This document shows positions 27,626 through 52,776 of a DNA stretch of 64,000 nt, piece after piece. Origin of the DNA: Thermoplasmata archaeon. GTDB lineage: Archaea > Thermoplasmatota > Thermoplasmata > UBA10834. The notes under the pieces are model-generated. The model was not told the origin of the DNA and made no database searches. It saw only the letters and a list, made by a program, of their open reading frames with translations. Within the stretch, counting starts at the first letter, position 1. Every line of letters begins with the position of its first letter. Location: assembly GCA_041304525.1 (NCBI GenBank), contig JBFYNF010000045.1:7479-71478 (forward strand), written 5' to 3'. A program made the translations under genes and the position numbers.

Positions 27626-28072
27626 GTGGAGATGATGGGCGCAAGCGGAGCATCGACTCAGCTGATATTCTTCATATCCGCGTTGATCGTGGCAACGGCA
27701 GTAGTCGCCGTGGCCGCCAACGGGGTGTCCAAGATAACCAACGGGATAGACCAGAAGAGCGATAATGTGGAGAAGGATCTGCTGACGGACATTTCGATAA
27801 TAAACGACCCTGACGAGATCCCGAACGACCCTGTCAGGATATATGTCAAGAACGTGGGCAAGACCGTCCTGAACCAAAACTATATCACAGTAATGCTGGA
27901 TGGGTTTGCGGTCACGAACTACACGCTGACGCTGAGCGGGAGCACGTTGTCCTACTGGGACCCCGCGAGCATGCTGACGATATCAATAGACCAGAATTTG
28001 GCAGAGGGGGACCATTCGGTACAGGTGACCACCGAGAACGGCGTCTCTGACAAGCTCAGCTTCCGCATATGA
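27626..28072 (+). CDS. FlaG (ArlG)-like protein
   Basis: Hydrophobic N-terminus QLIFFISALIVATAVVAVAANG followed by a beta-sandwich domain; position between FlaF and FlaH. ATG at 27632 with AGGAGGTGG RBS is the likely true start. Confidence 0.7.
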   Translation: MEMMGASGASTQLIFFISALIVATAVVAVAANGVSKITNGIDQKSDNVEKDLLTDISIINDPDEIPNDPVRIYVKNVGKTVLNQNYITVMLDGFAVTNYTLTLSGSTLSYWDPASMLTISIDQNLAEGDHSVQVTTENGVSDKLSFRI

Positions 28073-28076
28073 CGGG

Positions 28077-28787
28077 GTGAACCCTCCAATGGGGGAGACC
28101 TACAAGCTACAGATACCCAGAGACGACCTACATGACCAGCTAGGTCAGGGCCTCCCCGCGGGAACGATAACGTTGGTCGAGGGAGCGCATGGGACCGGAA
28201 AAAGCGCCCTCGTCCAGCGGATGATCTACGGATTCCTTTCGAACCAACACTCGGTAACGTGCATATCGACGGAGCTGACCGTCAGGGACTTCATCAACCA
28301 GATGTACTCGCTCGACTACCCCATATCCTCATGGCTCCTGAACGGGAAACTGAAGTTCGTGCCTGTGTACCCACTCGTGGGCAAGGCCAGGAAGAGGAGC
28401 GACTTCCTGGGCATGCTGATGGGCTCCGAGGAACTGTACAAGAGTGACATCATGATCATAGATACCTTCTCCAGCCTCGTCAGCAACAGCCTTCATGGGG
28501 AAGACAACAGCATAGGTGTGCTGTCATTCTTCAAGAGACTCACCGGCATGGGTAAGAGCATCGTGGTGACAGTGGACCCGACTGAACTGGACCCTAAGGC
28601 GCTCGCACCGTTCGAGTCGGACAGTCACGTGTATTTGAGCATAATCGTGTCACAGGTCGGCGGGATGATATCCAGGAGCATCATGGTGAAGCGGTTCGGT
28701 GGCACCGAGTACAGGGTGTCCCCGGTCGTGGGCTTCAGGATAGAGCCTAATGTGGGCATGGTCATCGAGATCACATCAGTCGTGTGA
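28077..28787 (+). CDS. arlH: FlaH (ArlH) KaiC/RecA-like ATPase
   Basis: Walker A LVEGAHGTGKSALV and RecA-like core. Conserved operon position before FlaI. Confidence 0.8.
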   Translation: MNPPMGETYKLQIPRDDLHDQLGQGLPAGTITLVEGAHGTGKSALVQRMIYGFLSNQHSVTCISTELTVRDFINQMYSLDYPISSWLLNGKLKFVPVYPLVGKARKRSDFLGMLMGSEELYKSDIMIIDTFSSLVSNSLHGEDNSIGVLSFFKRLTGMGKSIVVTVDPTELDPKALAPFESDSHVYLSIIVSQVGGMISRSIMVKRFGGTEYRVSPVVGFRIEPNVGMVIEITSVV

Positions 28788-28797
28788 GGTCACGGTC

Positions 28798-30429: not shown

Positions 30430-30443
30430 TCCGCGTTTGCTGG

Positions 30444-30509
30444 CACTGATAGTCAGGCCTGAGAATTGGGCGCCAACCCTTATTACTTCAGGTTCTGGAT
30501 TGGCCTTTG
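30444..30509 (+). promoter_or_regulatory. conserved promoter/start module A (shared with 34185-34252): TGATAGTCAGGC..GAGAATTG.GCGCCAA.CCTTAT, about 22 nt, then start codon and GCCACCG
   Basis: About 36 of 41 nt identical to the element before the surface-protein gene. Same spacing (22-24 nt) from the TTAT(T/G)A box to a start codon (TTG 30507), consistent with a BRE/TATA and leaderless start. Confidence 0.5.
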
Positions 30510-30608
30510 AGGCCACCGAGCGCAGGCTCCACAGGGCTACCTCCGCCCAAGGGTGCGGCATTGGCTCTGCTCAGGAGCCGCTTGAGGCGCCTCAGCGGAT
30601 GGGTGAGG

Positions 30609-32258: not shown

Positions 32259-32265
32259 GTCCTCC

Positions 32266-33927
32266 ATGGCTGCGAGCAAGATGAAGCGTCTCTACCAGTC
32301 CCTCGACATGCCCGTTGAGAAGTACTTCACGAGATACGCTCTCCCGCTCGTGATAGCGGGCATCGGCGCGACTGCCCTGCTGGTCTTCCTATTCCCCGAA
32401 CTGGCGGCCGATGGGCTGTTCAAGTATGTGTTCCTGGCAATCCCTGTCCTCTTCTCGGTCGTGGCAGTAATATACCCGATGCTACAGGGTGAACGGAAGA
32501 AGGTCCAGATAGAAAGGAACATGCACCTGTTCCTCGTCAGGATGAGCGTCCTCTCGACATCGAAGCTGCCAAGGAAGAAGATGCTCGAGATCCTTTCGAA
32601 GGTCAAGGAATATGAAGCGCTCAGCCTTGAAATCGAGAAGATCTACAAGCTCATGGAATACTGGAACATGGGTCTCTCGGACGCCGCGAGGACCGTCTCC
32701 CGCAAGACTCCCTCGCCGATGCTAGCAGATTTCCTCGACAGGCTCGCGCACTCATCCGATGCGGGCGAGGACCTCGAGGAGTTCCTCACCAAGGAGCGGG
32801 AGGTGTCCATGAGCGTCTACATCAACAAGTACGAGACGGCGCTCAAGGACCTCGACCTGCTGAACGAGATATTCGTCGCCGTGCTGATATCCCTGATGTT
32901 CATCCTCGTGTTCGTCGCGCTCCTGCCCGTGTTCGTGGACATATCCATCACCCTCATTCTTCCGGGCGTCGCGCTGCTGTTCGTCATCGTCGAGGGGATG
33001 GTGCTGTATCTGGTCAAATCGCTACTTCCATCGGACCCCATATGGCACAACATCAAGGGGCAGACCGAGATCGACAAGGTGATGAAGTCCGTCCTTCCGG
33101 CGACATACGCGGCATGCATCGGGTTCGCCGCCTTCGGGTTCCTGACGGGCTTACCCCTGATGCTCATAGTCGCGCTTGTCGTCACACCGCTCCTGTATCC
33201 AGGGTTCATGATAAGGAGGGAGGAGAAGCGGGTCAGGGCCAGGGACGAGAACTACGATTCGTTCATGAGGGCCGTGGGCAGCTACGCGGCATCTGCTGGC
33301 TCCGCGGTCACGGATGGCGTCGGCAGGCTGAGCAAGCACGACTTCGGGGAGCTCTCGGAAGGCATAGTGATCCTGTACAAGCGCCTGCTCACCCGGATAG
33401 ACCAGATACGCGCCTGGAACCTGTTCGCAGCCGAGAGCGGGAGCAACCTGATCTCCAAGTTCACGGAGATGTATGTCGTCGGTCTGTCCGTGGGCGGGAA
33501 GGTGGACAAGGTCATCGACATCATCAGCGACAACTTCGTGAAGCTGATGGGCGTCAGGCGCAAGAGGTACCAGTCATCCGACAACATGCTGGGGACATTG
33601 TATGGGATGTCCGTCGGCATAACGTTCACCTTGTTCTCCGCGCTGAGCCTGATGCAACTCCTGAACATCATGAACGAGCAGTTCGCGCTCTCCCAGACGA
33701 CGATCAATCTGCCCATCGCGCTGAAGCCATTCGACCTGGGCCTGGCTGAGGCGGTCTTCCTGCTCATCATGCTCGTGCACTCGCTCATATCCGCGAACCT
33801 CGTCTCCTTCGCCGGCGGCAGCCACAAGCATAGTTTCTACATCAACTTCGCAATCATAACATGGATCAGCACCGTGACGGCCATCGTCACACAGTTGATG
33901 CTCGACAAGGTCCTGAACCTCTCATGA
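32266..33927 (+). CDS. arlJ: FlaJ (ArlJ) polytopic membrane platform protein
   Basis: 553 aa with two TadB/C (T2SSF)-like halves and multiple TM helices. Immediately follows the FlaI genes. Confidence 0.85.
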   Translation: MAASKMKRLYQSLDMPVEKYFTRYALPLVIAGIGATALLVFLFPELAADGLFKYVFLAIPVLFSVVAVIYPMLQGERKKVQIERNMHLFLVRMSVLSTSKLPRKKMLEILSKVKEYEALSLEIEKIYKLMEYWNMGLSDAARTVSRKTPSPMLADFLDRLAHSSDAGEDLEEFLTKEREVSMSVYINKYETALKDLDLLNEIFVAVLISLMFILVFVALLPVFVDISITLILPGVALLFVIVEGMVLYLVKSLLPSDPIWHNIKGQTEIDKVMKSVLPATYAACIGFAAFGFLTGLPLMLIVALVVTPLLYPGFMIRREEKRVRARDENYDSFMRAVGSYAASAGSAVTDGVGRLSKHDFGELSEGIVILYKRLLTRIDQIRAWNLFAAESGSNLISKFTEMYVVGLSVGGKVDKVIDIISDNFVKLMGVRRKRYQSSDNMLGTLYGMSVGITFTLFSALSLMQLLNIMNEQFALSQTTINLPIALKPFDLGLAEAVFLLIMLVHSLISANLVSFAGGSHKHSFYINFAIITWISTVTAIVTQLMLDKVLNLS

Positions 33928-34184
33928 GGGAGAAAGGTGAGCGTCCGTCTGCGGTCCATGGCTGGCCTGAAGAGGTTTGGCCACCGAATCTTGCCTTTCG
34001 CAGTCGTCCTCTGAGAGAACGCGCATGGGCCAGCCTCTGGACAGGTTCTGACGAACGCTTGATTCGACTATCCTTAGCGCTTTTCATAAGCGTTTGGCAA
34101 GGAATCTCCGCACTGAGAATCGGTCGAGATTCTCTTCCCCACCCTGTGTCCGGACAACTGGTGTTGTTTCGCTGCACTTGACGC

Positions 34185-39281: not shown

Positions 39282-39485
39282 TGGACCCCGGCGACCTCAC
39301 TCGACATCGGCCTTGAGACTCTTCAACGATTGTGCCAATCTTTGATTCTTGTCCCACAAAGCACTACCCCATTCACCTTGGTGACTGATGACAGGAGACT
39401 AACAGGGCACGGAGCGGGACCGTCGAGGACGCCGCCAGACTGGACACGGGCGGCCTCGAATGGAAGACACCAAGGAAGTGAGGAT

Positions 39486-39827
39486 ATGAGGAAGGAGTTC
39501 GAGAGCGAGTTGGCGAGACAGGTATCAGGAAAGAAGAGACTCAGCAGGGCCTGGGTCATGTTGGCACTCTGTGCTGCCATTTTGGTCAGCGGGGCAGCGG
39601 CCGTGACGGCCGTAGCCGCAGGCAATGGAGATCAGCTCCAAACCCAGGACCAGCTCAAGGACGGTTCGTGCGACGACTGCGACGGCGACGGCATCTGCGA
39701 TTACGACCTAGACGGTGACGGTGTCTGTGACAATGATTGCACGTGCGACTGTGACGGCGACGGGATCTGCGACAACGACTCCGATGGAGACGGGGTCTGC
39801 GACTACCAAGAGGATTGCGTCGCCTGA
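39486..39827 (+). CDS. small membrane-anchored Asp/Cys-rich repeat protein (four DGDG(I/V)CD repeats; dockerin/TSP3-like Ca-binding-loop pattern)
   Basis: ATG 39486 with GTGAGGA RBS. Signal-anchor AWVMLALCAAILVSGAAAVTAVAA, then SCDDCDGDGICDYDLDGDGVCDNDCTCDCDGDGICDNDSDGDGVCDYQEDC. The repeat is also visible at the DNA level. Confidence 0.5.
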   Translation: MRKEFESELARQVSGKKRLSRAWVMLALCAAILVSGAAAVTAVAAGNGDQLQTQDQLKDGSCDDCDGDGICDYDLDGDGVCDNDCTCDCDGDGICDNDSDGDGVCDYQEDCVA

Positions 39828-40008: not shown

Positions 40009-40080
40009 TGGGCCGGTAGATCAGCGGCAGATCGCTCGCTTGGCATGCGAGAGGTCGCGAGTTCAAATCTCGCCCGGTCC
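40009..40080 (+). tRNA. tRNA-Ala (anticodon GGC)
   Basis: Manual fold: GGGCCGG acceptor with the G3:U70 Ala identity pair, D arm GATC/GATC, anticodon loop TTGGCAT, T arm GCGAG-TTCAAAT-CTCGC, discriminator A. CCA not encoded. AT-rich box GCTTTAATTAC about 30 nt upstream. Confidence 0.85.
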
Positions 40081-40267
40081 ACACTCATTTTCCGGACATC
40101 ACTCGCACAGTCAGGGATACCATCCTCCGAGCATCTCGTCCAGGGCGACCGCCTTGTCATCCACATGCTCCTTCGTCACGACGAGAGGCGTTAGGACGGA
40201 CGAGATTGGCTGACGAGGCATCCGCTCACATGTCCGTCGGTGCAGCTCAGGGGCATCGGTGGCCGAA

Positions 40268-41296
40268 TCAGTAGATACTTCCGCCTGGCTGAGTTGATGC
40301 AAGAACGCCATCGACCGCGCTCAGCGTGTACTCCACCCCTCCGGCCCCCGTCCACGACGCGAGGTCGAATTCTGATGTCATCGTCATCTTGAACACGGAT
40401 ATGCCCGTGAAGGTCAGTGGCGTCTTGGGCTGGCAGACCTCGGGCGCGTGAGTTGTCATGAGGAAGTAGGCAGCGCCTGTCCCGTCGTTGCACGCGTCGA
40501 ACAGGGTCACATCTCCATATTCGTCCACGGCCAACGCGACCTTCTCGTCGATGCCTATGCCCATCGCCACGGAGGCCCATCCATCCTGGACAATGCGCGC
40601 CATGAATGTCACGAGCCGGCCCATCCTATCCCTCGCCACGAAATGGCTGTCGGTGATCTTGTCGTCCATGTTCGGCATGGTGAGGAAGTCCTGCTCAAGG
40701 GTCAACCTCGGGTGATACGGGTTCGTCAGAGCCTCATCCGAGTCGATTGTGTTCCTCTCGGCGGAGAAGGAGAACTCGCCGAGCACCGCGAGGCCCGCAC
40801 TCGTGCCCCCGATCGGCGCGCCCTTGTCGCGCACATAGTGTATCGCATCCTCGACTGGGGTTCCCTTCCACATCCTCACATAATCCCACTGGTTGCCTCC
40901 CGCGATGAAGAGCGCATCGGCGTTGCGGATCTTGTCAAGCACGAAGACGTCGGAGCACGCCTCGTCCTTCAAGAAGATTATGGTCTCGCACGAATCGACG
41001 CCTCCAAGCTGTTTGAATATCCATGGGTTGTAAGCGTCGGTCCCAGAACAACGTATCACTACGAAGTCACCGCCGCCCGATCTCGCAATCATCCACTGCA
41101 TGGCCTCGGCGACGTCCGTGTCCCCGCCTGCTAGAAGCAGACCGGGGGTGGTCACCGTGTCGACGTCGGCGGGGTCCCCGTCTACATAGTACTCATAAGT
41201 CGCCTTCGCACCCGATGCCGACAACGATACCATCGTTGTCGACAGCACCATGATGAAAACCAAAGTCCCTGCTACAGCACGCTTCGCGAGATACAC
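40268..41296 (-). CDS. secreted peptidase S51 family protein (cyanophycinase / dipeptidase E-like)
   Basis: Signal peptide, then ..LFIAGGNQWDY.. and ..APIGGTSAGLAVLG.. (Ser nucleophile motif of the S51 family). Confidence 0.7.
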   Translation of the reverse strand: MYLAKRAVAGTLVFIMVLSTTMVSLSASGAKATYEYYVDGDPADVDTVTTPGLLLAGGDTDVAEAMQWMIARSGGGDFVVIRCSGTDAYNPWIFKQLGGVDSCETIIFLKDEACSDVFVLDKIRNADALFIAGGNQWDYVRMWKGTPVEDAIHYVRDKGAPIGGTSAGLAVLGEFSFSAERNTIDSDEALTNPYHPRLTLEQDFLTMPNMDDKITDSHFVARDRMGRLVTFMARIVQDGWASVAMGIGIDEKVALAVDEYGDVTLFDACNDGTGAAYFLMTTHAPEVCQPKTPLTFTGISVFKMTMTSEFDLASWTGAGGVEYTLSAVDGVLASTQPGGSIY

Positions 41297-41438: not shown

Positions 41439-41445
41439 TATATAT
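41439..41445 (+). promoter_or_regulatory. candidate TATA box (TATATAT) for the SO-domain/ECF operon
   Basis: About 50 nt upstream of ATG 41496 in the divergent intergenic region. RBS GAGGAG precedes the ATG. Confidence 0.4.
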
Positions 41446-41495: not shown

Positions 41496-43544
41496 ATGAG
41501 CGAAGACTCCAAAGTGATCAATGAGAACCCCGAATCCGGGACGGAATCCGAAAGCATAAGCCCGCCTAAGAAGACGGGCGTCTCCCCCGCGATGAAGATG
41601 GTTGCATTGGCAGCCGTAGTCATCCTCCTGGTGGCAGTGCCCATGGGGTACTTCATCCTGAGCCAGGACGATGATGAGGAGGCAAACTTCTCGGTCGCGC
41701 TCACCGGCAAGGGCGGAGAGGAGGAGACCGCGGATCTTGCATCGCTCGAGGACATGGACTTCGTAGAGAACATCTCATCGTACCAGAACAGGTTCAACAA
41801 CTGGAATGGCCTGGGGACATATGGTGGCGTTGAGCTCAGGGACCTCGCGGACCTCGTCGGCGGGATGGCCGAAGGGGACGTGATGACAGTGACCGCCTCC
41901 GACGGATACGCCGTCAACCTGTCGTACGAGCAGGTCTACGCAGGCACGGAGTTCCTCGCAGTCCAGGGCCAGATCATCCTCGCATACGAGTTCAATGGAA
42001 GCCTCATGACGGAGGAGGACTGGCCCATGATAGCCGTCCTCGCCCCGGACGAGGCGTTCAGCAACGACGACTTCAACGCGACAGCCCCGGACGCGCCCGA
42101 GTTCGAGATGCTCACTTCGGCAGGGTCGCTCTGGGTCAAGATGGTCTCGAGTATCGAGATCGGCGAGCTGCAGGAACAGGATGTCGTCCTCACGGTCGAT
42201 GGCACAACGACGGTCGACCTCACGATGTACGAGCTGGAGAACCTGGAGTCGCTCACGTCGAACGGCAGCTTCATCAAGTCGACGGGGACTGTCGAAGGAC
42301 CGTTCGAGTTCACCGGCGTGGCTCTGAAGGACCTCGTCGACCTCGTGTACTCGGGCGACGACTACTCAGTCGAGGTGGTCGCCACTGACGGTTACGCCAT
42401 GACCTACAATTACTCGCAGGTCGAGAACGGCACTTTCGAGCAATACGACTCCGCAGGGACATCCCTGGGGTTCGACAACTTCACGATGGTCGTGGCTTAT
42501 GCGCAGGACGGATTACCCCTGGTAGACATGGTCCTGCGCATAGCCATCATTGACGACAGCGAACCGATCACGGACGGCCACTTCTGGGCCAAGTATGTCC
42601 GCACGGTGAATGTGTTGTCACCCGTGCGGGAGTACACACTAGAACTCAACGGCACGACGGTCTACGAGATGGACAGACAGACCTTCGAATCCGTCGCATC
42701 CTGCGACTACCATGCAGCCAGCTGGTCCTTCGAGAACGAAACTGGGACGCACACCTACACAGGCGTCGCCCTTTGGACGCTCGTATCAGCGGTCGACGGC
42801 GCGGACGGACCGGACACTGAGTATCTGTTCAACGACCTGCTCGCCTTCGAGGGATACATTGTGAGGGTCACTGCCGAGGATGGCTACAACAAGGCCTTCA
42901 CATCGATGCAGGTCGCCCGGAACGATACTATCATCGTTGCCAACAAGCTCGACGGCGAGCCGCTGCCGGACGATGAGTGGCCCCTTAAGATCGTCGGCGA
43001 CTGGCTGGCCAGCAACCTGAAGGTCAGCCAGGTTGTGAACATATCCCTCGAGGATCTCCAACCAGTTCCTGACTGGGAACTCACCATCGTCGGCACCGAG
43101 ACGGTGACGATCAGTGCTGAGACCTTCGCGTCGATATACTACTCCGGCCTCCACGGAACATGGTTCAACTACACGAACTACGGCGGATGGCATGCGACGT
43201 ACCACAACTACACCGACGACGAGCTGGTTGACCACACATACGCGGGCATTCCGCTCTGGGTGCTGATCGCAGCCGTCGACGGCGAGGACCTATACCACTA
43301 CGAGTTCAACGACACCCTCGCAGAAGCCGGGTACGATGTGAAGGTCATCGCATCGGACGACTACAACACGACGTTCTCGATAGATGACGTCGCGTACAAC
43401 AACAGCTTCGTCGTCGCGTTCATGCTGGACTGGATGGCCCTGATCGATGACGAGTACCCGCTCAAGCTCACGAGTGAGTACCTGTTCGGGTCACAGAAGA
43501 TCAAGTCCGTAGCAACGATCGAACTGATAGGACTGCCCGCGTGA
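41496..43544 (+). CDS. membrane-anchored extracytoplasmic protein with four tandem sulfite-oxidase-fold (Moco-domain-like, apparently non-catalytic) repeats
   Basis: N-terminal TM MKMVALAAVVILLVAVPMGYFIL. Four repeats of the type [YF]TGV.L.DL..LV.G.....(V/T).A.DGY...(F/Y)......dG.PL.dde.PL.(I/L)..........K.V..I.L. For example HTYTGVALWTLVSAVDG..IVRVTAEDGYNKAF..LDGEPLPDDEWPLKIVGDWLASNLKVSQVVNISL, matching the YedY/sulfite oxidase NGePL..hGaPlRlvvP..G...vKW...I.v pattern without the Moco cysteine. Confidence 0.7.
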   Translation: MSEDSKVINENPESGTESESISPPKKTGVSPAMKMVALAAVVILLVAVPMGYFILSQDDDEEANFSVALTGKGGEEETADLASLEDMDFVENISSYQNRFNNWNGLGTYGGVELRDLADLVGGMAEGDVMTVTASDGYAVNLSYEQVYAGTEFLAVQGQIILAYEFNGSLMTEEDWPMIAVLAPDEAFSNDDFNATAPDAPEFEMLTSAGSLWVKMVSSIEIGELQEQDVVLTVDGTTTVDLTMYELENLESLTSNGSFIKSTGTVEGPFEFTGVALKDLVDLVYSGDDYSVEVVATDGYAMTYNYSQVENGTFEQYDSAGTSLGFDNFTMVVAYAQDGLPLVDMVLRIAIIDDSEPITDGHFWAKYVRTVNVLSPVREYTLELNGTTVYEMDRQTFESVASCDYHAASWSFENETGTHTYTGVALWTLVSAVDGADGPDTEYLFNDLLAFEGYIVRVTAEDGYNKAFTSMQVARNDTIIVANKLDGEPLPDDEWPLKIVGDWLASNLKVSQVVNISLEDLQPVPDWELTIVGTETVTISAETFASIYYSGLHGTWFNYTNYGGWHATYHNYTDDELVDHTYAGIPLWVLIAAVDGEDLYHYEFNDTLAEAGYDVKVIASDDYNTTFSIDDVAYNNSFVVAFMLDWMALIDDEYPLKLTSEYLFGSQKIKSVATIELIGLPA

Positions 43545-43553
43545 GACCAGACC

Positions 43554-45041
43554 ATGGAGATGCGTGAGAAGAGGACTTGGACAGTAATAGCTGTCGCGGC
43601 CAGCGCGGTGGTGATACTGGCTGGCCTAGGCCTTCCCATGCTCCGAGAGAGCGTGGAGGCCGTCGGCGGTGACATACTGTCCCAGACCTCCGACACCCTC
43701 ACGGTCAGGTGCCTGGGACCTGAGATCACGCTCACCCTGAACGGCTTCGAGGGTGAGGTGACCTTCACAAACTGCTTCCCAAACTCCACACTTTCTGGTA
43801 ATGATGACCCGGCCACGATAGATGGGTCGAACATATCCTGCACCGTTCGAGGTCCCGAGACGGAGTTGCGTCTCTCAGCTCAGGTCAAGGAGTCGTTCAG
43901 GTTCGCAGTCATGGGGGACAGTCAAGGGCAGAATGGCATACTCGCGGAAGCACTGGAACGCGTCGACGGATGCGAGTTCATTCTCCACCTCGGAGACATG
44001 ACCCCCTCGGGGCAGCCGTCCGAATTCGACGCCTTCGAATCGACCCTGGGAGCCATCACGATCCCCGTCCTCACCACACCTGGGAACCATGACGTCAAAC
44101 TCGACGGGGGCGATGAGTATACATCCAGGTTCGGGTCCTCGGCGTACAGTTTCGAGTACTCTGGCATAAGGTTCGCATCCGTCGATTCATCGGATCAGGT
44201 GATCGACGAGGGTGAGATTGATTGGCTGAGGGACACTTTCAAGGGGGCCGAAAGGAAGGTCCTGGTCACGCACATGCCAAGCTACGATCCGTTCGGAGAC
44301 AACCACACGCTAGATGCTGCATCTTGTGACAGGATACGGCAGTTCGTCCTCGAAGAGGATGTGGATGCCGTGTTCACTGGTCATATCCACGCATTCCACT
44401 ACATGCAGATGGAGAGCACCGACTTCATCATCACTGGCGGCGCGGGCGGAACCCTGGTAGACGGCGTCCATCACATCATCATCGTGAGCGTTGACGACAC
44501 CGGCTTCTCCTATGAGAAGATCGACCTCGATTACGTCCCACCTACGTCGCCACACGTGCAGGTCATCGGGAAGGATGGCTCGACCCTCAACATCACATAC
44601 GAGGAGCTGATGCTCATGGACCTCGTGGAGAACGACTCGTCATACGAGAACCTGTACGGCAACATCGCCGGACAGGGACACTACAGGGGAGTCCTCGTCC
44701 GGGACCTGCTTGAGCTCGTCGGTGGCATGACCGAGGGAGACCTGCTCACAATCACCGCAATAGATGGATACATCCAAGAGTTCGGGTTCCTGAACGCATG
44801 CCCCGATGCGACATGGCTGAATCTGCAGGGTGAGATGATAGTCTCGGTCGAATTAGACGGGGTGCTGGCGCCCACATGGACTGAGGGCCCACGGATAGCC
44901 ATGCTACCAGAGGATGGCCTGTACAGCAACTCCGACTGCGAACTCACCTCGTACGAAGGGCAGGGATACTCGACGTACGAATCCGCGGGCGCGAGATGGG
45001 TGAAGAACACGTTCACTATCACGGTGGAGGCTGCAGCATGA
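43554..45041 (+). CDS. membrane-anchored extracytoplasmic calcineurin-like metallophosphoesterase fused to a C-terminal sulfite-oxidase-fold repeat
   Basis: MPE motifs GDSQG, LHLGDMT, GNHD and GHIHAF. C-terminal domain YRGVLVRDLLELVGGMTEGDLLTITAIDGYIQEF is homologous to the repeats of the upstream protein. N-terminal signal-anchor. Confidence 0.75.
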   Translation: MEMREKRTWTVIAVAASAVVILAGLGLPMLRESVEAVGGDILSQTSDTLTVRCLGPEITLTLNGFEGEVTFTNCFPNSTLSGNDDPATIDGSNISCTVRGPETELRLSAQVKESFRFAVMGDSQGQNGILAEALERVDGCEFILHLGDMTPSGQPSEFDAFESTLGAITIPVLTTPGNHDVKLDGGDEYTSRFGSSAYSFEYSGIRFASVDSSDQVIDEGEIDWLRDTFKGAERKVLVTHMPSYDPFGDNHTLDAASCDRIRQFVLEEDVDAVFTGHIHAFHYMQMESTDFIITGGAGGTLVDGVHHIIIVSVDDTGFSYEKIDLDYVPPTSPHVQVIGKDGSTLNITYEELMLMDLVENDSSYENLYGNIAGQGHYRGVLVRDLLELVGGMTEGDLLTITAIDGYIQEFGFLNACPDATWLNLQGEMIVSVELDGVLAPTWTEGPRIAMLPEDGLYSNSDCELTSYEGQGYSTYESAGARWVKNTFTITVEAAA

Positions 45042-46114
45042 GGAAGTACTACTTCTCCACGAAGGACCTCGTGACCATCGCCTTGCTCTCGGCGCTCGGC
45101 GGAGTGCTGTCGACATACATCGGGTACCTCGGCAACATGGTCAACCACATCATCGGCGTTCCGTTCGGGGCGGGCCAGTTCTTGGCCGGACTGCACGTGA
45201 TATGGATCATGCTTGCCCTTGGCATCACGCGTAAGAAGGGGGCGGCCACCGTGACGGGATTCCTGAAGGGAGTGATCGAACTCTTCCTCGGGAGTACGCA
45301 TGGAATCGTCATAGTCATCGTTTCGCTAATCCAGGGATTGATACCAGACATCGTTCTGTTCAGTGACAAGGCCAAGGCGAACAGGAGCCCGATGTTCTAC
45401 GCACTGGCGGGGGGTTTCTCCGCTGCATCCAATGTGATTGTGTTCCAACTGTTCTTCTTCTCTGGCATACCTCTGTACCTCGTCGCGATGCTCTGCATGC
45501 TGGCAGCCGCTTCAGGCATCATCTTCGGAGGATGGCTTGTCCTGGAGATGCTCGAGTCGCTCGAGCTGTCAGGGATGATACTCGGCAAGAGGAGGGTCGT
45601 GGTGGACGACCCGAATGTCGACGAGAGCGTGTGGGTCAAGGGGAAGGCCGAGAAGCGCAAGGCGCTCACGGCGGTGATCGCCGCCACGATCTTCCTGTCA
45701 GCGTTCACGGTCGGCGCCGTATACTACTTCACATTCGTGTTCAAGCTCACAGAGGAAGGAACCATCGAAGTCTCCGGCGCGGTCACGGACCCATACACAT
45801 TCCGATACGAGGACTTCAGCGACACGCAGGTCACAGTCAACGCGGAGCTGATTGGCACCGTGACACACGTCGACCCGAGAAACTATACAGGTATCACTCT
45901 GAATGAAATCGTGAGTGAGGCGGGACCTGATGAAGGAGCCACCGAGGTCGTGGTCACTGGCCGGGACGGTTACTACGCCGTATTCGAGCTGGACGACGTC
46001 GCGGCGGACGACGGACTCATCATAACTCAAGAGGATGAGCTGTTCACGATAGTCGCTGCCAACTACGAAGGGGCATACTGGGTGGAGGATGTCGTGTCGG
46101 TCGAAGTGAGGTAG
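45038..46114 (+). CDS. ECF-transporter S (substrate-capture) component fused to an extracytoplasmic sulfite-oxidase-fold repeat via an extra TM helix
   Basis: N-terminus MRKYYFSTKDLVTIALLSALGGVLSTYIGYLG plus about 6 TM helices in roughly 190 aa, typical of EcfS. After a further TM, YTGITLNEIVSEAG..EVVVTGRDGYYAVFELDDV matches the repeat family. ATGA start/stop overlap with the previous gene; RBS GGAGGC. Confidence 0.6.
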   Translation: MRKYYFSTKDLVTIALLSALGGVLSTYIGYLGNMVNHIIGVPFGAGQFLAGLHVIWIMLALGITRKKGAATVTGFLKGVIELFLGSTHGIVIVIVSLIQGLIPDIVLFSDKAKANRSPMFYALAGGFSAASNVIVFQLFFFSGIPLYLVAMLCMLAAASGIIFGGWLVLEMLESLELSGMILGKRRVVVDDPNVDESVWVKGKAEKRKALTAVIAATIFLSAFTVGAVYYFTFVFKLTEEGTIEVSGAVTDPYTFRYEDFSDTQVTVNAELIGTVTHVDPRNYTGITLNEIVSEAGPDEGATEVVVTGRDGYYAVFELDDVAADDGLIITQEDELFTIVAANYEGAYWVEDVVSVEVR

Positions 46115-47578
46115 ATGCTCGACGTCATGGACCTTTACGTAAGGTACGAGAATAGGTCGAAGCCCGCAGTGGACGGACTCTCACTGCACGTCGACCTAGG
46201 CGAGTTCGTCCTTCTCATGGGCGACTCCGCATCTGGGAAGTCGACAGCCATGCAGGCCGTGTGCGGATTCATCCCCGACATCATACCCGCGGAGAAGAGA
46301 GGTGAGGTGCGGATAGGCGGACAGACGTATGAGGACGCCACTGCAATCTCCAGCGTCGCGTGCATGGTGCAGCAGGACCCTGAGACGCAGTTCTGCACGG
46401 AGACCGTCGAGGAGGAAGTCGCCTTCGGTCCTGAGAACCTGAACGTGCCCAGGGCGGATATCAGGAAGGCCGTGGATGAATCTCTTGCGAGCGTGGGCGC
46501 GTCCCACCTCGTCAGCAGGAAGCTCTCTACGCTCTCTGGGGGTGAGAAGCAGAAGGTCGCGATAGCGTCGATGCTCTCGGTGAGACCTCGGCTCCTCATC
46601 CTCGATGAACCCACATCGAACCTCGACCCGCGATCTGTCTCCGATGTCGTCGGAGTCATAGATGCCCTGAGACGGAGGAAAGAGATGACCATCGTGGTCG
46701 TCGAGCACCGGCCAGGAGGGTTCAAGGACCTCGCCTCGAGAGTCATGGTCATGGACAAGGGGATGCTTGTGCTGGACTGTGGACGGCATGATCCATCTTT
46801 CGCAGAGCGCATCGGGAAGGCCGAGGCGAAGCCTTCGCCACCGATACCCTCCAAGAGCGAACTGGCAGTCGTCTCGGTCAAAGGATTGTCGTACGGAGTC
46901 GATGGCACGAAGATTCTCGATGACGTGACATTCGACCTCAAAGATTGCGCTGTCGTGGCGCTAATGGGGGAGAATGGAGCCGGAAAGACGACACTTCTCA
47001 GACACCTCATGGGGCTGCTGACCCCACAGTCCGGAAGTGTCGACGTGTTAGGACATCCTCAGGACAAGGATGTGAGGACTGAACCTTGGGTCCTCGGGAG
47101 GGAAGTCGGGTTCGTCTTCCAGAATCCGAACCACCAGATCTTCGAGAGGACGGTCGAGAAGGAGATACTCTTCGCCGCGGAGAACTATGACGCACCGAAA
47201 GGCGAGGCACTGAAGGCGGTCGAGGAATTCGAGGCCTCCGAGGAGGTCAGAAAGTTCGTACACCCCCATTGCCTCAGCTTCGGTCAGAAGAGGAGGGTGA
47301 ACATCCGGTCTGCGTCGTCCCACGGCCCCAGGCTGATACTCATGGACGAACCGTTCTCGGGACAAGATGCCGAGAACGCAGAGGCCATCCGAGGGATGAT
47401 AACGAACCTCCAACGAGCGGGCAAGACGGCCGTCGTGGTCACGCACGACATACAGTTCGCGAAAACCTCGTGCACCGATGTCGTATTCATGAGGGCCGGG
47501 AAAATCGTCAGAACTGGTCCTGTGAGCAGCGTGCAGGAAAGCGAATGGGAGGAATTGTTCACCGGGGTGACCAGATGA
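46115..47578 (+). CDS. fused tandem ABC ATPase (EcfA-EcfA' / CbiO-type duplicated ATP-binding protein)
   Basis: Two full ABC domains with Walker A GDSASGKST and GENGAGKTT, signature LSGGEKQKV / LSFGQKRRV, Walker B ILDEPTSNLD / LMDEPFSGQD. Confidence 0.9.
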   Translation: MLDVMDLYVRYENRSKPAVDGLSLHVDLGEFVLLMGDSASGKSTAMQAVCGFIPDIIPAEKRGEVRIGGQTYEDATAISSVACMVQQDPETQFCTETVEEEVAFGPENLNVPRADIRKAVDESLASVGASHLVSRKLSTLSGGEKQKVAIASMLSVRPRLLILDEPTSNLDPRSVSDVVGVIDALRRRKEMTIVVVEHRPGGFKDLASRVMVMDKGMLVLDCGRHDPSFAERIGKAEAKPSPPIPSKSELAVVSVKGLSYGVDGTKILDDVTFDLKDCAVVALMGENGAGKTTLLRHLMGLLTPQSGSVDVLGHPQDKDVRTEPWVLGREVGFVFQNPNHQIFERTVEKEILFAAENYDAPKGEALKAVEEFEASEEVRKFVHPHCLSFGQKRRVNIRSASSHGPRLILMDEPFSGQDAENAEAIRGMITNLQRAGKTAVVVTHDIQFAKTSCTDVVFMRAGKIVRTGPVSSVQESEWEELFTGVTR

Positions 47579-48333
47579 CGGCAAGACTCCCTGAGGAGGG
47601 CACCCCCAGACTGAACCCCATCACCAAGGCGCTCCTGCTGGTGATGTTCTCCATACTCGTGCTCCTCGTGGTCGACCCGGTCCACATGTCCGCGATCGTG
47701 GTATGCGTGCTCGTAGCCAAAGAGCATTTCCACGCGCGAGGACTCGTCACAAGAGGCATCATTGGATTCGCGATGGCCATCTTCGTGGCGCAGATTCTAT
47801 TCAATCACTCAGGGGATGAGCTCGCGAGCTGGTCCGCATTCTCGGTCACGACAGGTGGCATCTACGATGGTGTGTCTATAGCCGGGAAGTTCCTGAGCTT
47901 GATCATGATGTCATGGGTGTTCGTCGCGACGACCTCACCCTCTGAGCTATCATCCGCCCTCACGACCGCGGGATTCCCCTACAGGTACGCGTTCCTGCCA
48001 GCGCTTTCCATGCGGTTCGTACCGGTGTTCCAGTTCGAGCTAGCCACTGTCAGGGAGGCGCAGGTCACGAGAGGGATGAAACTCGACAGGAGCATCAAGG
48101 GGATTGTGCGGTCCGCGAGGTACACGACCATGCCAATGCTCATGACGGCGATGTCCAGGGTCAACTCCATCACGGCATCCATGACGGGCAGAGGTTTCGG
48201 GATGCACAAGACCAGGACCCAGCTCCAGCCCATAAGGATGACTGCATGGGACCTCGCGTTCCTAGCCAGTTCGGCAGTATTCGTGGCAGTGACCTTCCTG
48301 GTCACAAGATGCCCGGCACTCCAAATCGCCTGA
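47575..48333 (+). CDS. ECF transporter T component (EcfT/CbiQ family)
   Basis: ATGA overlap with the EcfAA' stop. Conserved Arg-containing motifs REAQVTRG and MTGRGFG with 5-6 TM helices, typical of CbiQ/EcfT. Confidence 0.85.
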   Translation: MTARLPEEGTPRLNPITKALLLVMFSILVLLVVDPVHMSAIVVCVLVAKEHFHARGLVTRGIIGFAMAIFVAQILFNHSGDELASWSAFSVTTGGIYDGVSIAGKFLSLIMMSWVFVATTSPSELSSALTTAGFPYRYAFLPALSMRFVPVFQFELATVREAQVTRGMKLDRSIKGIVRSARYTTMPMLMTAMSRVNSITASMTGRGFGMHKTRTQLQPIRMTAWDLAFLASSAVFVAVTFLVTRCPALQIA

Positions 48334-49080
48334 TCATCCGACCCTCAGCTCACCGTTCTCGATCCTCGTCGCGTATCGTAGGAGTTCGCTCCCGTTCGAC
48401 CTGAAGGGAGCGTAATGTCTGATGGCGGCCGACACGGTAGCAGCAAGCCCGTCCGTGCGGTTCCGTCCGGAATGGGCCCAGTAACAACTCGTGAAATGCC
48501 TTGCGAAAGAAACCTTCGCCGCGGTGAAGACAGGGTCAGTCATGAGTACACTGGCGCACAACTGTCCCAGGTCGTTGAGTGTGTCTGCGGACGAGGCTTC
48601 CTCGAAGTCGAGGCCGGTGATGCCGGAGGGGGTGATGATGAAGTTCTTGAGGACGGCGTCCCCGCGAGCAAGCTTGAAATCGAATGCGATGTGGAAAGAT
48701 GACATCCATTTGGCCAGGTTGTCCGCGAGTTCTCTTTGCGCCTCGGACAGATCGGCCCCCGAAGAGTGGGAGAACAACTCATCGAAGACCACGGCCGCGG
48801 ATTCGCCCTCAATCGGTTCCATCACGATCGCATCTTCGACCATGGTGACGGGTAGCGGCACGGGGACTCCCTTCTCACGGCACCAGGATAGCACACTGAA
48901 CTCAGCTTGGGCACGCTCCTTCCATTCGTCCCTGAAGACCTTCACGACATATTCCCTTCCGCCGACAGATGTTCTGAACACGCGGTTCTTCTTGCTCTGC
49001 ATGTATGGGCCGATGCGGCCGTTCCCCAAGTCGTGCAATGACATCTTGATACTCATCGTCACTCGCCCACGGATTCCCAA
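48334..49080 (-). CDS. phosphotransferase-fold protein (APH/choline-kinase/Kdo-kinase-like)
   Basis: ..YVVKVF.. (Lys), ..IVMEPIEG.., then catalytic-loop-like GDAVLKNFII and GLDFEEASSADTLNDLGQL, resembling the H.D....N and iDfE motifs of the aminoglycoside phosphotransferase family. Confidence 0.5.
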   Translation of the reverse strand: MGIRGRVTMSIKMSLHDLGNGRIGPYMQSKKNRVFRTSVGGREYVVKVFRDEWKERAQAEFSVLSWCREKGVPVPLPVTMVEDAIVMEPIEGESAAVVFDELFSHSSGADLSEAQRELADNLAKWMSSFHIAFDFKLARGDAVLKNFIITPSGITGLDFEEASSADTLNDLGQLCASVLMTDPVFTAAKVSFARHFTSCYWAHSGRNRTDGLAATVSAAIRHYAPFRSNGSELLRYATRIENGELRVG

Positions 49081-49268: not shown

Positions 49269-50555
49269 ATGAGAACGACCTGTTCGAAGAGGATTATAGC
49301 GGCATTGCTGATTGTGACTGCGTTTTCGATGGTGAATGCGTTCGCCGTCGCGAAGCCGGACAGCTTGTTTGATGCGCCGGAAGATACATTGGTCGATGCG
49401 GAATGGACCATAATAGTGTATCTGGCTGCGGACAACAACCTGCAGCTCGCGGCTGTTGGCGACCTTCAGGAGATGGAGGCCGTCGGACCCATGGATGGTA
49501 TCAACGTCGTGGTCCTGATGGACACCATTGACATAACCGAAGGGACGCACTGGTACGCCCTCGGTGATGGCGAGACGCATTTCGATGCGGACGGCGCCCC
49601 GAGCATCTGTGACTGCGACGAGGTCGCAGGCGGCTCTCCTGGCGAACTGAACATGGGTGACCCGGAGACCCTGACCTACTGCCTCAAGACCGCTGTTGCA
49701 TTCGCCCCGGCTGACAACTACATGCTCATCCTTTGGGACCACGGAGGCGGCTGGTGGGGCGTGTGCTATGATGAGGGTTCACTGACGCCCACTGGGAGCA
49801 CGGACAGACTGATAATGGATGAGGTCCAGCAGGGAATCGAAGCATCTGGAGTCGACCTTGACGTCATCGGGTACGACGCGTGCTTCATGGGCATGATTGA
49901 GATAGCCTATGAGAACAGGAACCTGGCCGAGTACATGGTCGCGTCAATCACAACTGTGCCTGGAGATGGCTGGGACTACACGGCCTGGCTGGGTGGAATC
50001 GACGGCACTGACAGGAGCCCGTACGCCGTGAGCGAACTGGCTGCCTCGACATATGTCGATTTCTACACCATATGCATGGGCGTTGGCCTGGGCGGATTCC
50101 CTTACACTAGCATGGGCGTGTTTGACCTCACAACGGTCGAGAACCTCGTAATCAACGGCATAGACCCGGTGGCCGCGGCGCTCGTACCACTGACCGAGGA
50201 GTACTACCTCCGCGGGCCGATAGAGTCCTCGGAATCGCAGACGCCGCAGATACAGTTCCACGGCGAGGCGTTCCCGTTCACTGACATCGGACTGTTCATG
50301 ACACTGCTTGGCGAGAAGATACCAGAACTGAGCGTAGAAACCGCTAAGGCCGTCACACTGCTCGACGATACGATCCTGTGGTTCGACTATGTCGCGCCTG
50401 ACGCAGACATGTGTCTCCGGTCATTCGGGATGTCCATATACTACACCATAAGCGGGGACAAGCTGTACGACAACTACCTCACCAGCAACCTCGACATGGT
50501 GGACGACACGAACTGGGACGAGTTCCTCTGGGCCTTGGCGATGACGGCGGAATAG
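49269..50555 (+). CDS. secreted clostripain-like cysteine peptidase (family C11)
   Basis: Signal peptide. WTIIVYLAADNNL near the N-terminus is the C11 hallmark. ..LILWDHGGGW.. (catalytic His) and ..GYDACFMG.. (catalytic Cys). Confidence 0.8.
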   Translation: MRTTCSKRIIAALLIVTAFSMVNAFAVAKPDSLFDAPEDTLVDAEWTIIVYLAADNNLQLAAVGDLQEMEAVGPMDGINVVVLMDTIDITEGTHWYALGDGETHFDADGAPSICDCDEVAGGSPGELNMGDPETLTYCLKTAVAFAPADNYMLILWDHGGGWWGVCYDEGSLTPTGSTDRLIMDEVQQGIEASGVDLDVIGYDACFMGMIEIAYENRNLAEYMVASITTVPGDGWDYTAWLGGIDGTDRSPYAVSELAASTYVDFYTICMGVGLGGFPYTSMGVFDLTTVENLVINGIDPVAAALVPLTEEYYLRGPIESSESQTPQIQFHGEAFPFTDIGLFMTLLGEKIPELSVETAKAVTLLDDTILWFDYVAPDADMCLRSFGMSIYYTISGDKLYDNYLTSNLDMVDDTNWDEFLWALAMTAE

Positions 50556-51267: not shown

Positions 51268-52776
51268 TCAAGGATACTCTAGTCGTCTCGTATCGAATCC
51301 CTTCGCATACTCCCGGAGCAGAACAGCCATGCCCTTGCTCACCTCAGGCTCGAGCGGCTCGGGTGTATGAGTTTTCAGGAGTTCGTACATACGCTCCTTC
51401 GCACGTTCGTCGGCGCTCTTAGACCCTTTGGCGACCCACTGCTGCCTGGTCGACCTGTCTGATAGCCTGGCCGTATGGTGCTCATTCCTGAACTGCGTCA
51501 GCGTCTCCTTCCTCTTCAGGTAGTTGCCCTGAGGACCAGTCTTGTGGATGACGTCTACCGACAGAGTGCTCTCGTCGACCACGATGCCAGCAGCGATTCT
51601 GTTCACGTTCGAGGCGATTTCGTCATCAATAATCAGCTGAACGGGGGAGAAGGCGTTGAACGCCTCCGTAGAACCCATGAAGAGTTCGGCGAAGTCCGCC
51701 CCGGCCAGAGTGGCCATCAACGCCGCTTGCGTCTTCTCGTACGAAGTCTGAGCGTCAACCATCTTCGAGTCGCTCTGGACACCCATGTCGCTCGGCAGGC
51801 CATAGAACTTAGCGAGTTCGACCGTGCCGACCCCCAAGAGGGAGAACTCGGGCGCACCTGTGGCGGCGATGCCTGACCTCATGTCCAGAGGACATGAGAC
51901 GGACCCGTAGACGACCCTTGGGGATTTCGTGACGCACTTCGCTATCGCTATCGAGCTCAGTATCTCGGCGTTCTGCTGGACGAGCAGACCAGCCAGCGAG
52001 GCGGGCGCTGTCCCCCCTGCGAGCGCCATGACCATGATGAAGACCGGCAGGTCCATCTCCGCATACTTCAGGAGCGTCTCGAGCATGTGCTTGTCGTGCC
52101 CCAGAGGGCTAATCGGGTCGATGTAGCCCGGGAAGAGCGGAGTCTTCCTGAGGAGTTCCCTGTCCCCCAGGAGTAGCTCCGAGACGCGGAGCATGAGCTC
52201 GAACTCGATGCTGTCTCCGCTGCTCCCATAACTCGGCTTGGACGTGTGCATCAGACTCGTGACCCACATGACCATGCTCTGGGCGTCGGTATGGACGTCG
52301 CCCGGATAGACGGGCACATAGCCGACGGTGCATGTGTCCAGGGCGTCCAGGAGCCGGCTTATGAGGATTCCGTCCTTGAGGGTCGACGGCCGATACTCAC
52401 CCGTTTCGGGATCGATGTAGAACAGACACTGCGCCCCAGGGCCGAACTTGGTCCTGCCGTCGACGGCATCCACTGACCGGCTCTTATTTCTTGCATGCCA
52501 TCGGAAGTTGTGGGCGCAACTCTTGACCGCCTCCGCGACAGAAGACTCGGACATGCGCACGATCCTCGACTTCCGATCAACTGAGTAACCGTTGCTCTGA
52601 AGCATGTCGAGCACTTCTGGGGAGTCCACGAACACGCCTGTCTTCTCGAGCACTTCGAGGGTCGCGCCGTGAATCGCCTCCAGATTGGCTCTCCCAAGCA
52701 CCGTGAGCATGTTCTTCCCAGAAACCATGTGTACCTCTGCTCCGCCGATAGTGATGGCGTTGGTTCGGTTGACCAT
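51268..52776 (-). CDS. MttB-superfamily methyltransferase, non-pyrrolysine type (trimethylamine/quaternary-amine:corrinoid methyltransferase-like)
   Basis: 502-aa uninterrupted ORF with MttB-like N-terminus (..LEAIHGATLEVLEKTGVFVDSPE..) and TIM-barrel blocks; no in-frame TAG. Confidence 0.75.
   Translation of the reverse strand: MVNRTNAITIGGAEVHMVSGKNMLTVLGRANLEAIHGATLEVLEKTGVFVDSPEVLDMLQSNGYSVDRKSRIVRMSESSVAEAVKSCAHNFRWHARNKSRSVDAVDGRTKFGPGAQCLFYIDPETGEYRPSTLKDGILISRLLDALDTCTVGYVPVYPGDVHTDAQSMVMWVTSLMHTSKPSYGSSGDSIEFELMLRVSELLLGDRELLRKTPLFPGYIDPISPLGHDKHMLETLLKYAEMDLPVFIMVMALAGGTAPASLAGLLVQQNAEILSSIAIAKCVTKSPRVVYGSVSCPLDMRSGIAATGAPEFSLLGVGTVELAKFYGLPSDMGVQSDSKMVDAQTSYEKTQAALMATLAGADFAELFMGSTEAFNAFSPVQLIIDDEIASNVNRIAAGIVVDESTLSVDVIHKTGPQGNYLKRKETLTQFRNEHHTARLSDRSTRQQWVAKGSKSADERAKERMYELLKTHTPEPLEPEVSKGMAVLLREYAKGFDTRRLEYP

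Follow-up and report, generated by a model that had tools for sequence, protein, structure and literature searches.

The closest described relative of the transporter considered here is YkoEDC of Bacillus subtilis, an energy-coupling factor (ECF) importer of group I for thiamine or hydroxymethylpyrimidine (HMP). To our knowledge, ECF importers are thought to function without an extracytoplasmic binding domain. A relative of its ectodomains is PruR of Agrobacterium, Vibrio and Klebsiella (7kos, 7kp2, 7rkb), which has the sulfite oxidase (SUOX) fold without the molybdenum cofactor (Moco) or its ligand Cys and lies outside the cytoplasmic membrane. Here we describe a five-gene operon (41496-48333, + strand) in which the two types are joined. 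It lies in a 64,000-nucleotide stretch of a Thermoplasmata archaeon genome (GCA_041304525.1, contig JBFYNF010000045.1, positions 7,479 to 71,478 of the forward strand), hereafter the window. The operon encodes a YkoEDC-type importer whose S component bears an outward SUOX-fold domain, together with two membrane-anchored proteins of the same fold. Its orthologues in Bacillota stand behind riboswitches for the molybdenum or tungsten cofactor (Moco/Tuco). We place high confidence in this architecture and in the regulon; the substrate is a more tentative matter.

The five operon proteins are called P1 to P5, and the helices of the riboswitch are written stem P1 and stem P3 for distinctness. All five open reading frames (ORFs) lie at the coordinates given by a first-pass annotation of the window: P1 at 41496-43544 (+, 682 aa), P2 at 43554-45041 (+, 495 aa), P3 at 45038-46114 (+, 358 aa, with the same start in the public gene call), P4 at 46115-47578 (+, 487 aa) and P5 at 47575-48333 (+, 252 aa). 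The gaps from P1 to P5 are 9, -4, 0 and -4 nt, and the overlap between P4 and P5 is an ATGA. A gene on the opposite strand (40268-41296, -) lies upstream of P1 with a spacer of 199 nt. Inspection of the spacer revealed a candidate archaeal TATA box, TATATAT (41439-41445, +), 57 nt ahead of the P1 ATG, and a GAGGAG Shine-Dalgarno-like motif directly before that ATG. The layout and the TATA-bearing spacer are consistent with a single transcription unit. The first-pass annotation had proposed one operon, and the gap lengths and the opposite-strand upstream gene bear this out.

The ECF module is encoded by the last three genes. Residues 9-128 of P3 match ABC_cobalt PF09819 in Pfam (E 2.1e-20, over cut-off), and residues 7-183 match the YkoE structure 5EDL in phmmer (E 1.1e-8). 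Hence the N-terminal ~185 aa, which the first-pass annotation had taken for an S component, agree with both S-component profiles and the YkoE crystal structure. P4 contains two fused ABC_tran domains and scores 332 bits with TIGR04520 ECF_ATPase_1 (cut-off 315); it also scores 315 bits with TIGR04521 ECF_ATPase_2, just below the cut-off of 330. P5 matches PF02361 CbiQ (E 5.1e-25) and TIGR02454 at 48.5 bits, below the equivalog cut-off of 111.8. We assign P4 by these matches as a fused EcfA-EcfA' ATPase similar to YkoD, and P5 as the EcfT transmembrane component similar to YkoC/CbiQ, the identities that both had been given at first. With S, A, A' and T encoded together, the module is a dedicated group I importer of the YkoEDC type. 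As in YkoEDC, the S component, the fused EcfA-A' and the CbiQ-type T follow one another in the same order within one operon.

The residues of YkoE that bind thiamine are Tyr46, Trp49, Glu77, Gln95 and Asp131 (PMC5037267). The equivalents of Glu77 and Gln95 are kept in the P3 family. The other three are replaced in P3, Trp49 by His, Tyr46 by Ala and Asp131 by Gln, and the replacements are conserved across 121 homologues. The cassette also differs from YkoEDC by a seventh transmembrane (TM) helix with a SUOX-fold ectodomain, by two accessory ecto-proteins, and by the Moco/Tuco riboswitch that its bacterial orthologues have instead of a thiamine pyrophosphate (TPP) riboswitch.

P3 begins with the YkoE-type S component (aa 1-185). 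A cytoplasmic linker rich in Lys/Arg follows, then the seventh TM helix (aa 210-235, nt 45665-45742, +) and last, facing outward, a SUOX/PruR-like domain that is acidic and 123 aa long (aa 236-358, nt 45743-46111, +). Both termini of an S component are cytoplasmic, so the extra TM helix would place the C-terminal domain of P3 outside. P1 has one TM anchor (aa 36-55) followed by four extracytoplasmic SUOX-fold repeats, approximately at nt 41676-42173, 42174-42626, 42627-43064 and 43065-43541 (+). In P2 a TM anchor (aa 11-29) is followed by a metallophosphoesterase (MPE) domain (aa ~115-315, nt 43896-44498, +) and a C-terminal SUOX-fold domain (aa ~329-495, nt 44538-45038, +). P2 had been described as a secreted metallophosphoesterase; it is a phosphoesterase but it is not secreted, as the N-terminal TM helix anchors it in the membrane. 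Every anchor helix has Lys/Arg on its N-side, and the ectodomains are acidic, strongly so in P1 and P2. The density of N-glycosylation sequons is 2.9 per 100 aa in P1 versus 0.2 in the cytoplasmic ATPase. An extracytoplasmic position of the SUOX domains of P1, P2 and P3, as first predicted, is supported by the charge pattern at the anchors, the acidic ectodomains and the sequon density.

Six copies of the SUOX-like domain are present in three proteins, the number first counted. P1 matches Pfam Oxidored_molyb with E 1.2e-15, over the curated cut-off, and aa 242-328 of P3 match it at 20.6 bits, slightly short of the cut-off, 24. For the SUOX-like domain of P2 there was no Pfam match at E ≤ 1. 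Its relationship comes from the comparison with P1 repeat 1 (39% identity, E 3e-32), and a profile of the P3 C-terminal domain aligns with P1 repeat 3 at an hhalign probability of 85% (E 6e-6). Pairwise identity among the six aligned copies is 21-37%. The representative of the 50%-identity cluster of P1 also has four matched stretches, and P1 orthologues have 2-7 repeats. Searching P1 against the chains of the Protein Data Bank (PDB) gave no match, and a fold search was needed; by this fold search the repeats have the sulfite-oxidase fold. An identity with DUF4430 or transcobalamin-like domains was ruled out by this fold. The repeats are not in a binding family already known with ECF modules.

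The Mo-ligating Cys of sulfite oxidases is absent from all six copies, in accordance with the first-pass annotation. In the HMMER alignment the column of the SorA ligand Cys holds S, S, S and N in P1 repeats 1-4, S in P2 and E in P3. No Cys whatsoever occurs in 105 of 121 C-terminal domains of the P3 family. The absence of the ligand argues that the repeats are not enzymes of the sulfite-oxidase type. SorA, YedY/MsrP, SoxC and the Moco domain of nitrate reductase share the SUOX Moco-binding fold with the cassette proteins, which differ from them in having no Mo-ligating Cys, no dimerisation or redox domain and no twin-arginine pair in the N-termini, and in belonging to a family whose domain is repeated up to 10 times. 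Pfam gave no dimerisation, heme or other redox partner domain in the cassette proteins, and the N-termini of P1 and P2 show no twin-arginine pair on inspection.

A profile of the six window copies matched PruR proteins (E 2e-7 to 1.7e-6) no less strongly than SorA (E 3.7e-7). PruR is the nearest and only characterised Moco-free relative, and it has never been linked to transport. PruR is periplasmic and holds its pterin between Tyr104 and Trp160, with a hydrogen bond from Asn102 (PMC11194511). The N-D-Y of PruR, which contains Asn102 and Tyr104, aligns with D-G-Y in the window repeats. The D and Y of this motif are invariant in the six window copies and in 40 domains of the P3 family. They are also among only three positions that are conserved at ≥90% across a set of 93 diverse family members. 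Conservation in the family is thus highest on the pterin face of the fold. A Trp is found near the C-terminus in four of the six copies; no alignment ties it to W160 of PruR. P3-family domains have no conserved Arg or Lys. PruR differs in that its hairpin is truncated and a Trp (PW motif) occupies the Cys position, where the cassette copies have Ser, Asn or Glu. Moreover, PruR is a soluble single-domain sensor partner of the c-di-GMP enzyme DcpA, encoded in a pruR-dcpA operon, and does not belong to a transporter. The cassette domain is repeated and membrane-tethered or fused to S, and its neighbours are ECF components, with no diguanylate cyclase or phosphodiesterase partner.

Two minor observations concern these domains. 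The SUOX-like domain of P2 contains, in a long insert (YSNSDCELTS), a "DC" pair (aa 460-461, 44931-44936) that is conserved at ≥90% in 118 homologues; it lies away from the canonical Mo-ligand position, and its Cys is missing from the Thorarchaeota orthologue. P1 (aa 242-319, E 1.4e-9) and the C-terminal domains of P2 and P3 weakly match NCBIfam NF041762, "GEGP motif-containing diheme protein". This suggests that in the NF041762 family a relative of the SUOX-like domain is joined to cytochrome c modules.

The phosphoesterase of P2 matches Metallophos PF00149 (E 8.8e-18). Its nearest solved structures are the glycerophosphodiesterase GpdQ (E 5e-5) and purple acid phosphatases (E 4e-3). The motifs GDxQG, GDxTP, GNHD, TH and GHxH are conserved at ≥90% in 118 homologues, with a conserved Gln in motif I in place of the canonical His. 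Convergent with the EcfT gene and with zero spacer lies a gene for a small cytoplasmic kinase of the APH/ELK fold (48334-49080, -). Its catalytic Lys, Glu, Asp and Asn and the DFG-like Asp are invariant, and it mostly resembles small-molecule hydroxyl kinases. The kinase matched no equivalog or curated family and no PDB chain. It is a repeated neighbour of the cassette in Thermoplasmata and Bacillota and also in Thorarchaeota, there upstream and on the same strand, and is probably linked to the cassette in function.

To map the distribution we used one genome per species, fetched the 80 best loci and located the components by BLAST; 39 loci were full-length (23 bacterial, 16 archaeal). Relatives of the fused S-SUOX protein were found in 206 species genomes from Thermoplasmata, Asgard archaea and anaerobic Bacillota. 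The 120 best P3 homologues are all 341-414 aa long, and hence the fusion is the rule in this clade. Homologues carry the names Thermoplasmata or Thermoplasmatota. Besides Thermoplasmata, the 80 best loci include Asgard groups, which are Thor-, Hermod-, Heimdall-, Odin- and Promethearchaeota. About 50 of these 80 belong to strictly anaerobic Bacillota, among them Syntrophomonadaceae, Dethiobacteria, Pelotomaculum, Desulfosporosinus and Fermentithermobacillaceae, with the cultured Anoxynatronum and Thermovorax.

The core of fused S-SUOX, AA' and T was present in 39 of 39 full-length loci. All 39 also had at least one SUOX-domain protein, which was either a protein of 2-7 repeats or a small lipoprotein with a single domain. 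The MPE was found in 15 of 23 bacterial and 9 of 16 archaeal loci, and the kinase gene in 8 of 23 and 11 of 16, respectively. Within 6 kb on either side of the 39 loci, 13 had both the MPE and the kinase, 11 the MPE only, 6 the kinase only and 9 neither; this co-occurrence is not significant, and we do not take the two for an obligate pair. Bacterial and archaeal S proteins are 43-47% identical over the full length, including the fused domain. From this conservation the cassette is taken to be one orthologous unit across both domains of life. Seven loci of Hermod-, Prometh- and Odinarchaeota (L068, L070-L072, L074, L078 and L083) have a minimal cassette of a two-repeat SUOX protein, S-SUOX, AA' and T, and within 6 kb they show no phosphoesterase and no kinase. 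In these Asgard loci a phosphate cycle would be dispensable or encoded elsewhere.

The SUOX domain family as a whole is large, at 2889 cluster representatives (E ≤ 1e-3), and a single protein can have up to 10 repeats. PF00174 was matched by 88 of 93 family members tested. Partner modules in the family are dockerin, cohesin, SLH, PKD and Big/Ig-like domains.

The regulation of the bacterial loci points to a Mo/W cofactor. In loci L007 and L008, Rfam identified an RF01055 Moco/Tuco riboswitch (79.5 bits, E 1.6e-17) 50 nt upstream of the first cassette gene. RF01055 matches were present in 8 of the first 11 bacterial loci scanned, and a covariance model built from them was run over the loci and the window. 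It gave 26 matches in 20 Bacillota loci. Among 25 plus-strand matches, 17 sit directly upstream of a SUOX-fold gene (repeat protein, MPE-SUOX or S-SUOX). The remaining eight stand ahead of genes for TupA/ModA-type binding proteins, for a second ECF S component, or for a dockerin protein with a SUOX protein after it. Orthologous bacterial loci scanned with Rfam had no TPP riboswitch.

The hairpin of stem P3 (model positions 59-73) is missing from every one of the eight RF01055 alignments displayed, which cover seven loci. The variant without stem P3 was associated with the tungsten cofactor by Regulski et al. (PMC2408646), and a 2024 study of Eubacterium limosum takes the same view (PMC11725836). 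Judged by these alignments, the Bacillota cassette belongs to the Moco riboswitch regulon of the stem-P3-less, tungsten-cofactor type. The ribosome-binding site (RBS), GGAG, lies in the 3' strand of stem P1. Binding of the ligand would thus hide the RBS, and the genes would be on when the cofactor is scarce; we infer an OFF switch that responds to bound cofactor. A pterin or tungsten link had been called speculative and unsupported at first. It now has evidence in the bacterial orthologues behind stem-P3-less Moco/Tuco riboswitches.

The flanks of the bacterial loci (143 ORFs) are enriched in 16 further SUOX-domain proteins and in 9 ModA-type and 6 TupA-type binding proteins. The enrichment extends to 5 permeases, 5 DUF364 proteins, 6 SLH proteins, 2 MOT1 and 2 MobB. 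The flanking SUOX-domain surface proteins bear SLH or dockerin anchors. In the archaeal flanks (88 ORFs) we saw lineage synteny only, with amidohydrolase, MscS, serine dehydratase and GNAT genes.

Regulski et al. listed two stem-P3-less RNAs of Syntrophomonas wolfei that lie upstream of genes for a "putative sulphite oxidase", an exception for which they had no explanation (PMC2408646). The SUOX cassette family is a likely candidate explanation of these genes.

Several further arrangements were noted in the bacterial loci. In Anoxynatronum (L017, L020) a stem-P3-less riboswitch (11254-11372) precedes a bare ECF S component of PF12822 (11501-12037, 178 aa), two genes downstream of the cassette, which would put another ECF S protein in the same regulon. 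Loci L035, L038, L043, L044 and L045 contain two or three Moco/Tuco riboswitches each, with separate riboswitches for TupA/ModA-like binding proteins, for the S-SUOX-AA'-T core and for large SUOX-repeat surface proteins. Genes for DUF364 ("putative heavy-metal chelation") and TrmO_N-like proteins recur near these multi-riboswitch loci. A Bacillota metagenome-assembled genome (MAG) has a c-di-GMP-I riboswitch (L031, 12792-12877, +, 87 bits) ~3.3 kb downstream of the cassette.

From these data we propose the following model. A shortage of the W/Mo cofactor would turn the system on, in bacteria through the riboswitch acting as an OFF switch. The SUOX-fold domains would capture a pyranopterin-type species outside the cell by the pterin face, with D-G-Y and, in four of six copies, the C-terminal Trp. 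Candidate ligands are Moco/Tuco, molybdopterin (MPT), dinucleotide forms or a precursor. The ligand would be handed from the multi-repeat antenna of P1 to the S-fused domain of P3, and the P2 phosphoesterase would remove a phosphate or nucleotide. The YkoE-like S component would then import the heterocycle; it retains the two residues, Glu and Gln, by which YkoE binds the aminopyrimidine ring, but has lost the thiamine-specific Trp, Tyr and Asp. In the cytoplasm the APH-fold kinase would restore the phosphate. The window also encodes a tungstopterin enzyme, aldehyde:ferredoxin oxidoreductase (AOR; ~11738-13570, +; AFOR_N E 1e-74, AFOR_C E 4e-123), 28 kb upstream of the operon. A ligand stable only in the absence of oxygen would agree with this gene and with the anaerobic life of every named bacterial host.

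We give the full sequence of capture, dephosphorylation, import and re-phosphorylation of a pyranopterin-type cofactor an even chance of being right. For the pyranopterin as substrate our estimate is even at best and perhaps somewhat lower. The stronger claim, that this is the first dedicated prokaryotic importer of the Mo/W pyranopterin cofactor, of molybdopterin or of cyclic pyranopterin monophosphate (cPMP), with SUOX domains as reversible extracellular carriers in a relay, trimming by the ecto-phosphoesterase, entry through a modified YkoE-type module and re-phosphorylation by a new kinase, is plausible but falls short of even. Extracellular capture and dephosphorylation feeding an ECF importer had been suggested by the first-pass annotation. 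That suggestion gains from the cassette conserved in 80 loci, from the MPE motifs and from the recurrent kinase, and as a model it is still inferred.

A number of points weigh against the pyranopterin model. Pyranopterin dithiolenes are very labile, and we know of no prokaryotic importer for them. The 88 archaeal flanking ORFs show no Mo/W or pterin theme. The covariance model found no Moco/Tuco riboswitch in the window or in any archaeal locus, and the riboswitch evidence would therefore reach the window only by orthology, at 43-47% identity. We also know of no RF01055 example from archaea. Rfam at the gathering threshold gave only two tRNAs in the window. For the bacterial flanks, acquisition of tungstate/molybdate is as good a reading as pterin. 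Tuco riboswitches are also found ahead of a tungstoenzyme, iron transporters and FocA in E. limosum (PMC11725836), so that membership in the regulon does not fix the substrate. S. wolfei reportedly carries genes for MPT synthesis (PMC2408646). The MPE and the kinase are not universal, and the phosphate cycle would be optional. Finally, many large surface proteins that have PKD, dockerin or SLH modules also contain the SUOX domain, which makes a structural or adhesive role possible.

The main and serious rival is ECF-type uptake of tungstate or molybdate, which we consider unlikely but well worth weighing. Here the ectodomains, perhaps with the dinuclear metal site of the MPE, a binder of tetrahedral oxyanions, would capture the oxyanion itself or its complexed or thio form, and S would import the metal. 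Stem-P3-less Moco/Tuco riboswitches also control tupABC, and the enrichment of TupA/ModA-type binding proteins, ModB-type permeases and MOT1 beside the bacterial cassettes fits this reading, although the same loci already have complete TupABC, ModABC or MOT1 systems there. ECF transporters for Ni and Co are established; no oxyanion ECF S component is known. The active-site pocket of the SUOX fold suits oxyanions, and the conserved carboxylates E35 and D75 could ligate W as in WtpA. On the other hand, P3-family domains conserve no Arg or Lys, and the residues they do conserve map to the pterin contacts of PruR. Metal uptake would also leave a phosphoesterase with intact motifs and a small-molecule-type kinase without an obvious role, and the S component keeps the heterocycle-binding Glu and Gln of YkoE. 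If SUOX repeats were instead structural, adhesive or homotypic assembly modules, with a substrate unrelated to pterins or Mo/W, then the 2889 clusters, the runs of up to 10 repeats and the partner modules PKD, Big, SLH, dockerin and cohesin would be as expected, and so would the sharing of one domain by three cassette proteins. Yet the best conserved positions form the pterin site and not a surface patch, and the 17 riboswitches that directly control SUOX-domain genes are hard to square with a neutral scaffold. We regard such a role as improbable.

A plain thiamine/HMP importer orthologous to YkoEDC, with the ecto-phosphatase acting on thiamine phosphates, a ThiK-like kinase and an incidental SUOX domain, would account for the PF09819 and 5EDL matches, for the names "thiamin/HMP permease" (JGI, COG4721), for the gene order of S, fused AA' and T as in ykoE-D-C, and for the conserved E77 and Q95. 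ThiK of E. coli also belongs to the APH family. However, RF01055 recurs where a TPP riboswitch was not found, the essential stacking Trp49 is lost along with Tyr46 and Asp131, the similarity to YkoE is low (E 1e-8), and the fused domain has a pterin/Moco-binding fold. We rejected a plain thiamine transporter as very improbable, since neither the binding residues nor the riboswitch class fit. Least probable of all is that the SUOX domains are extracytoplasmic Moco/Tuco redox enzymes served by the transporter. The domains are placed in Pfam Oxidored_molyb, and Regulski et al. classed the riboswitch-linked genes of S. wolfei as putative Moco-using sulphite oxidases (PMC2408646). Against this, the Mo-ligand Cys is missing, there is no domain for dimerisation, heme or another redox partner, and neither P1 nor P2 has a twin-arginine pair in its N-terminus. 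Furthermore, the RBS in stem P1 implies repression by abundant cofactor, the opposite of what a cofactor user would need.

In its working the pyranopterin model has analogies elsewhere. In the Isd/NEAT heme relay of Gram-positive bacteria one cofactor domain is likewise reused in multi-repeat surface proteins, small lipoproteins and the transporter, and expression is induced by cofactor shortage. That relay uses NEAT domains and a type II ABC importer with a binding protein, unlike the SUOX fold and ECF of the cassette, the ligand of which is a predicted one. In salvage of the NadN/e(P4)-PnuC-NadR and UshA types, an ecto-metallophosphoesterase trims a phosphorylated or dinucleotide cofactor, after which the dephosphorylated core enters the cell and regains its phosphate from a cytoplasmic kinase. 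The cassette differs in that its importer and kinase are of other families, its phosphoesterase is fused to the capture domain and its substrates are predicted. TupABC, WtpABC and ModABC are likewise under Moco/Tuco riboswitches and lie near the cassette on Bacillota chromosomes, but they are binding-protein-dependent type I ABC importers of oxyanions and have only generic ABC ATPase homology with the cassette.

We found no paper in which an ECF S component bears an extracytoplasmic SUOX-fold domain, and none that links ECF transport with Moco/Tuco riboswitches; the first-pass annotation, which did not recognise the architecture as a described system, agrees with this. PMC3197636 and PMC13119186 were checked and are irrelevant to the architecture. 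Automatic annotations call the proteins "ECF transporter S component", "metallophosphoesterase" and "molybdopterin-dependent oxidoreductase". The system is an importer of a known type, ECF, whose capture apparatus is new and whose predicted substrate is of a new class, and its function would be categorically new if cofactor import is shown. An S component that carries an ectodomain and works with tethered helpers would, if true, be a new mode of substrate delivery for the ECF class.

The Mo/W cofactor has always been treated as made in-house. If the ligand is a pyranopterin, the cofactor would be an exchangeable "vitamin", a shared resource in anoxic sediments, digesters and syntrophic consortia. 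Auxotrophy and W/Mo limitation would then be read differently from Thermoplasmata and Asgard MAGs, and at least 2889 sequence clusters now called "molybdopterin-dependent oxidoreductase" would gain a function. A 2026 pterin review treats how pterins cross membranes as an open question, which with a pyranopterin ligand would become directly testable. If the ligand is tungstate or molybdate, the cassette would be a fourth and mechanistically unusual class of Mo/W importer.

Other features of the window were recorded. Flanking the operon are a Peptidase_S51-like gene, the opposite-strand gene 40268-41296 (-), and a clostripain-type Peptidase_C11 gene with a signal-like N-terminus (49269-50555, +). 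An MTTB-family methyltransferase is encoded at 51268-52776 (-). An archaellum cluster at ~20900-34000 (+) includes five Arch_flagellin matches, FlaC, FlaD/E, two T2SSE (FlaI/FlaH-like) and one T2SSF (FlaJ-like). The tRNA match at 9567-9671 (+) is 105 nt long versus a 71-position model, and an intron is probable; the second tRNA, at 40010-40081, is ordinary. A small ORF at 39330-39827 (+) encodes an Asp/Cys/Gly-rich repeat (CDGDGICDxD...) of no family and may not be a real gene.

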